Virus record (IMG/VR): IMGVR_UViG_2778261347_000018
Direction: 5' to 3' (one strand)
Length of the DNA: 4,098 nucleotides
From: a virus
Taxonomy: Duplodnaviria > Heunggongvirae > Uroviricota > Caudoviricetes
A program made the position numbers. Positions 1-3,000 of this stretch are shown here, one piece after another. Within the stretch, counting starts at the first letter, position 1; each line of letters starts with the position of its first letter.

Positions 1-3000
1 TGACACTGGGACTGAATGCGCTGACGCTGACGGATGTTACAAAAAATGCAGCGTATGGCGTTGAGATAGAAAGTCTGGTGCTGGAGATAAATGCACCGGC
101 ATCATCATAAAAAGTGAGCCAGTCAAATGGAAGGTATCGTTAAACTCACCGGTAGTGTCAGTGGGTCGTCTGAGACGCCTGCATGAGTTATCAGAGCCAT
201 CAGTAGTTAACTGGTGGCTTTTTTATTGTTGTCAGCTTCCGGATAACGGGAGACGGGGTATGTACCAGATGGAAAAAATCACAACAGGTGTGTCATACAC
301 CACGTCAGCGGTAGGGACGGGATACTGGTTACTGCAACTGCTGGACAAAGTCTCTCCGTCCCAGTGGGTGGCAATAGGTGTACTGGGGAGTCTGCTGTTT
401 GGCCTGCTGACGTATCTGACTAACCTGTATTTCAAAATCAGGGAGGACCGCCGTAAGACGGCGCGGGGAGACTAAAGCGATGAAGAAAAAATACGAACTG
501 GTTGTTAAAGAGATAAATAATTACCCGGATAAGATTGCTGTTACTGTGGCACTTGAAATTGGCGGGCATCCGTCGTTGTTGTTGCCACATGTGGCGATTA
601 GTCTTGACCGTACTGAAGGTGCCACGCTGGAGTTTTACGAAGCTGAGGCGAAAAAGCAGGCGAAGCAGTTTTTCATGGATGTTGCTGCCGGGTTATGTGA
701 AGGGGATGGTCCGTTGCCGGAAAAGCGGCCCATCATTTTAGAGGCGCAGGATGTGTTGATAACCTACAGAGGAAAACTACCGGGAATAATTACTGGTTCT
801 CTGAAGACTCCACCGCTGGCCTGAAGACTTAATATATCCAGGGATTTGAAATCGATAAACCCTGATAAATATCCATGAACGCAAAAATCAGATACGGCCT
901 GTCGGCTGCCGTTCTGGCGCTGATTGCCGCAGGTGCGCCTGCGCCTGAAATCCTCGACCAGTTTCTGGATGAAAAGGAAGGTAACCACACCACAGCATAC
1001 CGTGATGGTGCGGGTATCTGGACCATCTGCCGTGGAGCCACCCGGGTGGATGGTAAGCCTGTTATTCCTGGCATGAAGCTGTCGAAGGAAAAATGCGACC
1101 GGGTTAACGCCATTGAGCGTGATAAGGCGCTGGCATGGGTGGAGAAAAACATCAGAGTGCCACTGACCGAACCCCAGAAAGCGGGGATTGCGTCATTCTG
1201 TCCGTACAACATTGGCCCCGGTAAGTGTTTCCCGTCGACGTTTTACAGACGGATTAATGCAGGAGATCGAAAAGGTGCCTGCGAAGCTATTCGCTGGTGG
1301 ATTAAGGACGGTGGCAGGGACTGCCGTATTCGCTCAAATAACTGTTACGGTCAGGTATCCCGTCGTGACCAGGAGAGCGCGCTGGCGTGCTGGGGAATCG
1401 ACAGATAAGCAGAATATTTTGCTGAAAAATGAGGTTTGCTTACATGGATGGATAACACGAAATCCTGCAAATTGGCAAAATGTAAGTGAATAAAGTCAAA
1501 ACAGTTGTTTAACACTCAGGCACCGTAATGATGCCTTTGTCATTTCTGCGCATCTCACGCGCATCTCACAACACAGAACCTTTCAGGATGACCCTTGAGG
1601 ATACCGGTTTGGCTGTCGGTGCCTTTCTGTGGGCTGGATTCCTGTGAGACAAGGTTCATCACTAAAAGGAAATAACCGATGAATATGATGGCCGTGCCGT
1701 TTCACGGCAACTCTCTTTATGTAGTTAACCATAATGGCGAACCATACGTTCCCATGAAACCTGTCGTTGCGGGGATGGGGCTGGCCTGGCAATCACAGTT
1801 GGCTAAGTTAAGACAGCGTTTTGCGTCAACTATAACGGAAATCGTTATGGTTGCTGAGGATGGGAAACAACGCAATATGGTGTCCATGCCACTTCGAAAA
1901 CTTGCCGGCTGGCTACAAACCATTAATCCCAACAAAGTAAAACCCGAAATCCGCGATAAGGTCATCCGGTATCAGGAAGAGTGCGACGATGTTCTTTACG
2001 AGTACTGGACGAAGGGTTTTGTCGTTAATCCCCGTAAAATGAGCGTGATGGAAGAACTCAACCAGGCTTGTGCTGACATGAAACGGGATAAAAACATTGC
2101 CAGTGTGTTTGCTACCGGGCTGAATGAGTGGAAACAGGTTAAAGCCGCGCATGTATCAAAAATCCGTACGCTGGTAAATGAAGCGAATATGCTGATTGAT
2201 TTTGTCCTGGCTGATACAGGCAAAGGGAAAATAACAAAGGCGGATTGATGGGGTGGCTAATGATATCAGATAAACTCATAACGCTGGTGAAGAGCCTCTG
2301 TGTACTTGTCGGCATTTCATTTTTAGTCATGCTGGTTGCCATTTTCTTTTCCACCGCCTGGCGAGTCCTGACGTTATCGGGACTGGTGGGGTGAAAGAGA
2401 GATGAACCGTGTTCTGTGTGTGGTGATTATTGTCATGGCGGTTGGCTGTGGTGCGCTGTGGCTGGCAACAAACCATTACCGTGACAACGCGCTCACCTAC
2501 AAAGCGCAGCGCGATAAAAAAGCCAGAGAGCTGGAACAGGCGAATGCCACCATTACTGACATGCAGGTGCGCCAGCGTGATGTTGCTGCGCTCGATGCAA
2601 AATACTCGAGGGAATTAGCCGATGCGAGAGCTGAAAATGAAACTCTGCGTGCTGATGTTGCCGCTGGTCGTAAGCGCCTGCGGATCAACGCCACCTGCCC
2701 CGGTACCGTGCGTGAAGCCACCGGCACCTCCGGCGTGGGCAATGATGCCGCCGTCGAACTCTCTCCGGTTGCTGGACGAAACGTTCTCGGTATCAGAGAC
2801 GGAATCATCAGCGACCAGGCAGCATTGAGAATGCTTCAGGAATATATCCGCACTCAGTGTATTAACTAGTATTTTTGTTATTCGGAGAATGCATGAAGAA
2901 ATTATTGGTAACCGTAAAGCCTTTTCAGGGAACAATTCCGTTCCGTATTTTGCAGCGTGGTCGTGTTCTTGTTGAAGGTTCGTTCAGTGGTAAATGTACG

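Follow-up and report, generated by a model that had tools for sequence, protein, structure and literature searches.

An uncharged dual-start extension in an abundant clade of P21-type holin genes of Escherichia coli prophages

The curated record of phage 21 (OL657228) annotates two products of the holin gene, the 'S21-71 antipinholin' and the 'S21-68 pinholin'. According to secondary accounts of this system, the TMD1 of S21-68 must exit the bilayer before TMD2 forms pinholes, and an extra positive residue retards that exit in S21-71 (PMC4749879, PMC13056207, PMC9636201). Two of these accounts ascribe the inhibition by S21-71 to the extra basic residue and describe a delay that scales with positive charge (PMC4749879, PMC13056207). 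The holins of Stx phages have been assigned to the P21-family pinholins, with SAR endolysins as their partners (PMC10462455, PMC8136144). In the searchable literature, no account was found of the start motif or antiholin of Stx-phage S, or of lysis or expression data for its allele with a Met-Tyr-Gln start (MYQ), which is the allele considered here.

The stretch of DNA analysed (the window; 4,098 bases) matched many STEC-type E. coli chromosomes (e.g. O111:H11) at 99.9%, and its best match among phage records was PPyecE_EH1910, at 99.4%. The window represents the late region of a Stx-phage-type lambdoid prophage and carries a non-Stx prophage allele of S. According to the RefSeq annotation of an identical locus and to Pfam scans, the end of nanS-p (to position 110) is followed by the class II holin gene S (260-475, plus strand, 71 codons), a YdfR/DUF1327 gene (480-824), a lysozyme-family endolysin gene (875-1408, plus strand; PF00959, 1.5e-24), a P22-Ant-like gene (ant, 1679-2248) and a membrane ORF of 48 amino acids (2248-2394) that precedes Rz. 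The last genes of the lysis cassette are the Rz i-spanin gene (2402-2869, plus strand; PF03245, 1.5e-39) and, embedded in it, the Rz1 o-spanin reading frame (2622-2828, plus strand; PF06085, 6.9e-21); small ORFs, YlcI/YnfO on the minus strand and the start of an HNH endonuclease gene lie 3' of Rz/Rz1. The endolysin has a Gly/Ala-rich hydrophobic N-terminus (MNAKIRYGLSAAVLALIAAGAPAP...) and is presumed to be the SAR endolysin partner of the pinholin; the endolysins of Stx phages have likewise been described as predicted SAR endolysins (PMC8136144). S is thus placed in a lysis cassette, with spanins and an endolysin of predicted SAR behaviour nearby.

Between the end of nanS-p and the holin gene lies an intrinsic terminator (193-226, plus strand) made up of a 12-bp hairpin (193-221) and an adjoining T run; in a 96-nt fold, the site had a z score of -2.69, and 2 of 200 shuffles were equally stable. 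A plus-strand promoter-like site was sought in positions 1-900 and none was found, hence none ahead of S. Together with the terminator, this implies that S is transcribed by Q-antiterminated late transcription. An Rfam scan of the window returned zero matches.

The ORF at 260-475 matched the Pfam profile PF04971, 'Bacteriophage P21 holin S', with an E value of 1.7e-32 and 111.7 bits (cut-off 26) over profile positions 1-63 of 64, and the PHROG matches of the S protein were holin families. RefSeq labels it a class II holin family protein, with the first ATG as its start, and makes no call other than the 71-codon ORF. The protein is laid out as predicted for a class II holin, with about 70 residues, a SAR-like TMD1, a TMD2 with the G40/S44/G48 spacing and a charged C-terminus. 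TMD1 is weakly hydrophobic and rich in Gly, Ala, Ser and Thr (52% together; mean hydropathy 0.58, S21 0.33), and TMD2 is hydrophobic (mean hydropathy 1.59, S21 1.50) and carries G40-S44-G48. These three residues, as well as M1 and M4, were invariant in an alignment of 17 sequences of diverse homologues; the double Met does not occur by chance.

The first-pass annotation had placed two in-frame ATGs at 260 and 269, had read the extension between them as Met-Tyr-Gln without a basic residue, and had given the S21 start as MKS-MDK. The DNA bears out each of these statements: the ATGs at 260 and 269 are in frame with the 71-codon ORF, whose codons ATG (260-262), TAC (263-265), CAG (266-268), ATG (269-271), GAA and AAA encode M-Y-Q-M-E-K, and OL657228 reads ATG AAA TCA ATG GAC AAA, that is, M-K-S-M-D-K. 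The holin gene thus begins with two in-frame starts at a distance within the range of one to three codons. These open a long reading frame equivalent to S21-71 (260-475, plus strand, 71 codons), with an extension lacking K or R, and a short reading frame equivalent to the S21-68 pinholin (269-475, plus strand, 68 codons), with TMD1 and TMD2. Instead of at least one Lys or Arg between the two starts, the window has Tyr-Gln, and relative to the short form the long form gains a side-chain charge of 0 in the window, +1 in phage 21 and -1 in a Met-Asp-Gln (MDQ) variant. A cryptic upstream start adding an in-frame Arg-Arg (GRRG) was excluded, there being no in-frame ATG, GTG or TTG in 161-260 and the terminator lying in this stretch.

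The start region resembles a dual start, and its layout would be that of a working one. SD1 (GGGAGA, 248-253, plus strand) lies 6 nt before ATG1 and 15 nt from ATG2, and its hybrid with the 16S 3' end has an energy of -7.4 kcal/mol, whereas SD2 (GGGGU, 255-259, plus strand) abuts ATG1 and lies 8-9 nt before ATG2, with a hybrid at 253-260 of -6.3 kcal/mol. In the centroid fold, the 3' arm of a small hairpin (CUUCCG-GAUAA-CGGGAG, 236-252, plus strand) is SD1, so that SD1 is buried, and this hairpin occupies the site of the SD-occluding stem-loop in other family members. A hairpin over SD1 was found at the same place in nearly all of 66 distinct family start regions, with different stem sequences such as CACCCGC/GCGAGGUG, CACCCCG/CGGAGGUG, CACUUCC/GGAGGUG, ACGC/GCGU (phage 21) and GCCUC/GAGGC. 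Conservation was judged by position with differing stem sequences, the MAFFT alignment of the start regions being out of register for covariation. Folding energies showed no significance against shuffles (z scores of -0.18 and -1.08 in the window, with a median of -1.16 over the 66 start regions), and the hairpin is best described as apparently conserved in position rather than as proven.

The frequency of uncharged extensions among homologues, proposed as a check in the first-pass annotation, was determined by reading the DNA around each start at 76 loci from a one-genome-per-species collection, of which 74 were usable. A K or R codon stood between two in-frame Met codons at 68 of the 74 loci, the motifs being M-Y-R-M (31 loci), M-K-S-M (20), M-L-R-M (6), M-H-R-M (3), M-K-M (1) and, in a more distant clade, M-R-M (7). 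The six species-level loci without a basic residue comprised MYQ (3), MDQ (1) and an ATA in place of ATG1 (1), all in Escherichia and in the clade of the window, and ATG CAA TTG in Symbiopectobacterium (1). The MYR, MLR and MHR types use CGA or CGC for Arg, the M-R-M clade uses AGG, AGA or CGA, and the Ser codon in the MKS type was TCC or TCA. This constancy of the amino acid despite synonymous change points to translation of the extension and to selection for the basic residue elsewhere in the family; at the level of codon comparison, the basic residue looks selected across the family. It is the rule in the family, but it is not universal. Protein searches added MFQ and MYQ starts in Citrobacter and Cronobacter and MNQ and MHQ starts in E. 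coli, and MIT-M, MQL-M, MTD-M or MN-M starts in a few remote members; the uncharged double-Met starts among these (MIT-M, MQL-M and MN-M) suggest that charge may not be the sole regulatory route. A search of representatives at 50% identity indicated a small family (154 representatives, many of them fragments) and gave few further remote N-termini.

The MYQ start is abundant. Of 5,426 complete E. coli genomes, 2,430 contain the 73-nt start region of the window (228-300), which occurs at 8,218 places, with a maximum of 14 per genome, and which 1,293 records match at 99% or more; at least 80% of the region was covered in 2,406 of the 5,426 genomes. The start region of the phage 434/essD type (MKS) was covered to at least 80% in 2,420 of the 5,426 genomes, about equal to the MYQ type; it is mostly present in single copy (median of 1 place per genome), whereas the MYQ type is often multi-copy (median of 2). 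E. coli and Stx phages carry the MYQ allele very often, and its occurrence in the window is ordinary.

Within this clade, the extension varies at one residue. In a scan of IMG/VR in which codons 1-3 were left free, the 120 contigs among the matches listed had ATG TAC CAG (MYQ; 107 contigs), ATG GAC CAG (MDQ; 12) or ATG AAC CAG (MNQ; 1), and the D2 allele was found on several DNA haplotypes. ATG1 and Q3 were constant, and both Met codons were invariant, over 62 gene haplotypes with many synonymous differences (some contigs being counted twice), indicating that the uncharged state is no recent lesion but a stable allele. The gene body showed many synonymous polymorphisms and few replacements, suggesting purifying selection on the holin proper. 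In a sister lineage, a holin core that reaches 100% identity with that of the window is joined to a different upstream sequence, in which ATA occupies the position of ATG1 and the GGGGT element (SD2) is absent. This lineage occurs in Stx1a-phage records, where the 68-aa holin is the sole product annotated, and was present in 692 of the 5,426 genomes. The long form may thus be dispensable in nature, the same holin being run both with and without it.

From these comparisons, we suggest the following model of S in the MYQ clade. The gene would have inherited the dual start of its family, with an SD-occluding hairpin, two adjacent SDs, and ATG1 and ATG2 nine bases apart, and both the 71-aa and the 68-aa products are probably made. 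Because Met-Tyr-Gln adds no charge, the TMD1 of the long product may be released about as readily as that of the short product, and the long product would mainly be an extra dose of holin and at most a weak inhibitor; a Met-Asp-Gln extension might even favour TMD1 exit. Lysis timing in the MYQ clade would then depend on the dose and the sequence of the holin, and not on a charge-based antiholin. We thus infer the use of both starts and the lost inhibitory strength of the long form, and we put at about an even chance the full reading in which the two products are both synthesized and the long one, as a weak or null antiholin, mostly adds to the holin dose. A weakened or absent antiholin appears to be the most likely answer, and it would refine the existing model rather than introduce a new mechanism.

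The first-pass annotation had proposed that the antiholin function may be weakened or work differently, or that only one start may be used. The polymorphism at residue 2, the loss of ATG1 in the sister lineage and the lack of a compensating feature are consistent with the first proposal; the same comparative facts fit the second as well, against which the two SDs and the hairpin argue. The functional interpretation given there seems reasonable but unproven. Compensation by a more hydrophobic TMD1 was considered and rejected, the mean hydropathy of TMD1 being 0.55 in MYQ, 0.57 in MYR and 0.48 in MKS holins.

It is possible, though in our view unlikely, that the 71-aa product is a working antiholin by a charge-independent route, in which three extra residues, a polar Gln and an interfacial Tyr among them, would have to traverse the bilayer together with TMD1 and would slow its exit enough for triggering to be delayed. 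Most clades have an aromatic or hydrophobic residue at position 2 (Y, L, H, F, M). The large MYR group has Tyr2 as well, and about 89% of the copies of the MYQ clade among the matches listed retain it (107 of 120 contigs); the extension may therefore still matter through its length or through interfacial anchoring. The uncharged double-Met starts of the remote members would agree with such a route, as would the retention of ATG1, SD1, SD2 and the hairpin in the clade; ATG1 was never lost among haplotypes with the MYQ start region, which fits any model with a useful long product, an inhibitory one included. However, the delay by S21-71 is credited to the basic residue and scales with charge in the accounts of phage 21 (PMC4749879, PMC13056207), and the Y2D and Y2N variants and the ATG1-less lineage are common. 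Furthermore, other clades keep K or R despite having Tyr, suggesting that Tyr alone is insufficient.

The use of a single start in vivo, giving one product without isoform regulation, seems slightly less probable than such a route. Translation would begin either at ATG1, which has the best-placed site in SD1, or at ATG2, whose SD2 is free, and the second ATG would be a relic. The occlusion of SD1 by the hairpin at 236-252 in the centroid fold is in line with a single start, as are the calling of the 71-codon ORF alone by RefSeq and the sister lineage, which works with ATG2 as its sole start and has a 68-aa holin in its annotation. On the other hand, each ATG has its own SD-like site at a workable distance (6 nt and -7.4 kcal/mol for ATG1, 8 nt and -6.3 kcal/mol for ATG2), the same arrangement is annotated for two products in phage 434, and both Met codons are invariant across the 62 haplotypes of the clade. 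The retention of two SDs and the hairpin argues against the use of only one start, although not decisively.

We regard as rather improbable that the long isoform is a tunable modifier and not an inhibitor, with a neutral Y2, a polar N2 or an acidic D2 setting the speed of TMD1 exit, and with D2 pushed outward by the membrane potential so that triggering is faster. If this were the case, the Y/D/N polymorphism and the ATG1-less lineage would be lysis-timing alleles among STEC prophages, with consequences for burst and Shiga-toxin release. It is very improbable that antiholin control has moved to another gene of the cassette, making the charge unneeded. The extra genes at 480-824 (YdfR/DUF1327, between S and R) and 2248-2394 (the 48-aa membrane ORF) could be candidates, but YdfR is without a membrane segment and VT2-Sakai has the MYQ start with R directly after S. 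YdfR/DUF1327 was also rejected as a replacement antiholin by its distribution, which shows no association with start type: it adjoins holins of the MKS, MYQ and single-start kinds, and many MYQ loci lack it.

A long product that has lost most or all of its inhibitory strength, as favoured here, would bear on the phage 21 model, in which the antiholin works through one added positive charge, whereas the MYQ clade keeps two starts without that charge. The clade takes in S of the Sakai Stx phages, and nearly half of the complete E. coli genomes have close relatives; it is a natural test of whether the charge is necessary, and it also probes what purpose the second start serves where the charge is absent. 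Differences between alleles at codons 1-3 could matter for the phenotype, as holin timing governs burst size and, in STEC, Shiga-toxin release. S and its sequence have been known for a long time; the departure from the textbook motif is the missing basic residue across a whole abundant clade.

Phage lambda S is an unrelated protein with three TMDs, and its Met-Lys extension carries the basic residue that the window is without. The lambda S107/S105 pair (class I) follows the same logic, in that a second in-frame start lies a few codons from the first and the mRNA is structured near the SD (PMC9636201, PMC9671378). In the essD-type S of phage 434 and DLP12 (MKS-MDK), two adjacent SD sites are followed by ATG-N6-ATG, as in the window. 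The curated annotation of phage 434 gives one RBS 'for S71 antiholin product' and one 'for S68 product', the latter being GGGGT, the same pentamer as SD2 of the window; unlike the window, this S carries Lys2.

In VT2-Sakai and VT1-Sakai, S genes with the MYQMEK start are present, and their start regions are identical to that of the window from the hairpin through codon 8. Their proteins show few differences from that of the window (L/F24, K/R30, V/A37 and the C-terminal end), none of which bears on the start motif, and the genes lie downstream of nanS-p, as in the window. In their own records, they are annotated as equal to L0107 of 933W and similar to S of H-19B; in VT2-Sakai, R follows immediately after S.

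The S proteins of phage 21 and the window are 73% identical over all 71 residues, have the same length and belong to the same Pfam family. The positions of Met1 and Met4, the weakly hydrophobic TMD1, the TMD2 with G-S-G, the hairpin overlapping the SD, and the cassette with a lysozyme-type endolysin and Rz/Rz1 are common to both. However, the second SD-like site, GGGGU, is present in the window and absent in phage 21, and the lysis cassette of the window is interrupted by ydfR and ant, unlike that of phage 21. The extension reads K-S in phage 21 and Y-Q in the window, and the long form of the window accordingly gains no positive charge.

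A natural single-start version of the pinholin gene S (260-475, + strand), whose 71-aa and 68-aa frames open at ATG1 (260) and ATG2 (269), respectively, exists in a sister lineage (L085, L083, L086, L089, L103, L099, L105, and L005), also represented at 1463-1535 of L283, the Stx1a phage Stx1_132418. The holin core of this lineage matches that of the window at up to 100% identity. The position of ATG1 reads ATA, the Shine-Dalgarno-like site GGGGT placed for ATG2 is absent, and the upstream sequence differs from that of the window, and the sister lineage thus represents a 68-aa version of the holin with one start. 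Its start region was found in 692 of the 5,426 complete E. coli genomes.

Within the clade of the window, homologous loci of IMG/VR (L159-L278) were collected by the pattern GAGACGGGGT-N9-ATGGAAAAAAT. Among the matches listed, codon 2 was TAC (Tyr) in 107, GAC (Asp) in 12, and AAC (Asn) in one, with all differences confined to the first base of the codon, and no synonymous variation was detected in codons 1-3. The acidic GAC allele was present on several DNA haplotypes.

Other start types occur in the holin family. The holin of Symbiopectobacterium purcellii (L043, approximately 3001) starts with ATG CAA TTG GAC AAA, where TTG replaces the second Met codon and the extension consists of one Gln, making it a further relative without a basic residue in the extension. 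In a more distant clade including Enterobacter, Trabulsiella, Raoultella, and Shimwellia (L052-L058), the start is M-R-M, with Arg encoded by three different codons (AGG, AGA, or CGA), and a CCCC/GGGG hairpin lies upstream of the Shine-Dalgarno site; the spacing of these starts resembles that of lambda. Enterobacterial pinholin loci were also found on short contigs in the genome_contigs set (L006, L014, L019, L025, L030, L045, L050, and L076), in assemblies labelled as Xanthomonas pisi, Bacillota, Nanosynbacter, Veillonella, Segatella, Geobacteraceae, and Alkalicoccobacillus. Contamination or mis-binned contigs, rather than true hosts, most likely account for these loci.

nanS-p ends at 110, and the interval between it and S holds an intrinsic terminator (193-226), in which a T run comes after a strong hairpin of 12 bp; the late transcript must pass through this terminator to reach S, and no promoter-like site was found on the + strand upstream of S in the window. 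Rz contains the embedded Rz1 frame (2622-2828), whose first ATG is at 2622 and whose second, at 2637, is where the lipoprotein signal starts; RefSeq leaves Rz1 unannotated in a locus identical to the window. The AT-rich, largely non-coding region at 3120-3740 contains a 46-aa hydrophobic ORF (3474-3614) annotated as hypothetical, for which no Pfam or PHROG match was obtained, and no Rfam family matched across the whole window.

The lysis cassette is interrupted twice, by a YdfR/DUF1327 gene (480-824) between S and the endolysin gene R and, between R and Rz, at 1679-2394, which contains a P22-Ant-like gene and a 48-aa membrane ORF (phrog_4906). In phages 21 and 434, S, R, and Rz are contiguous.
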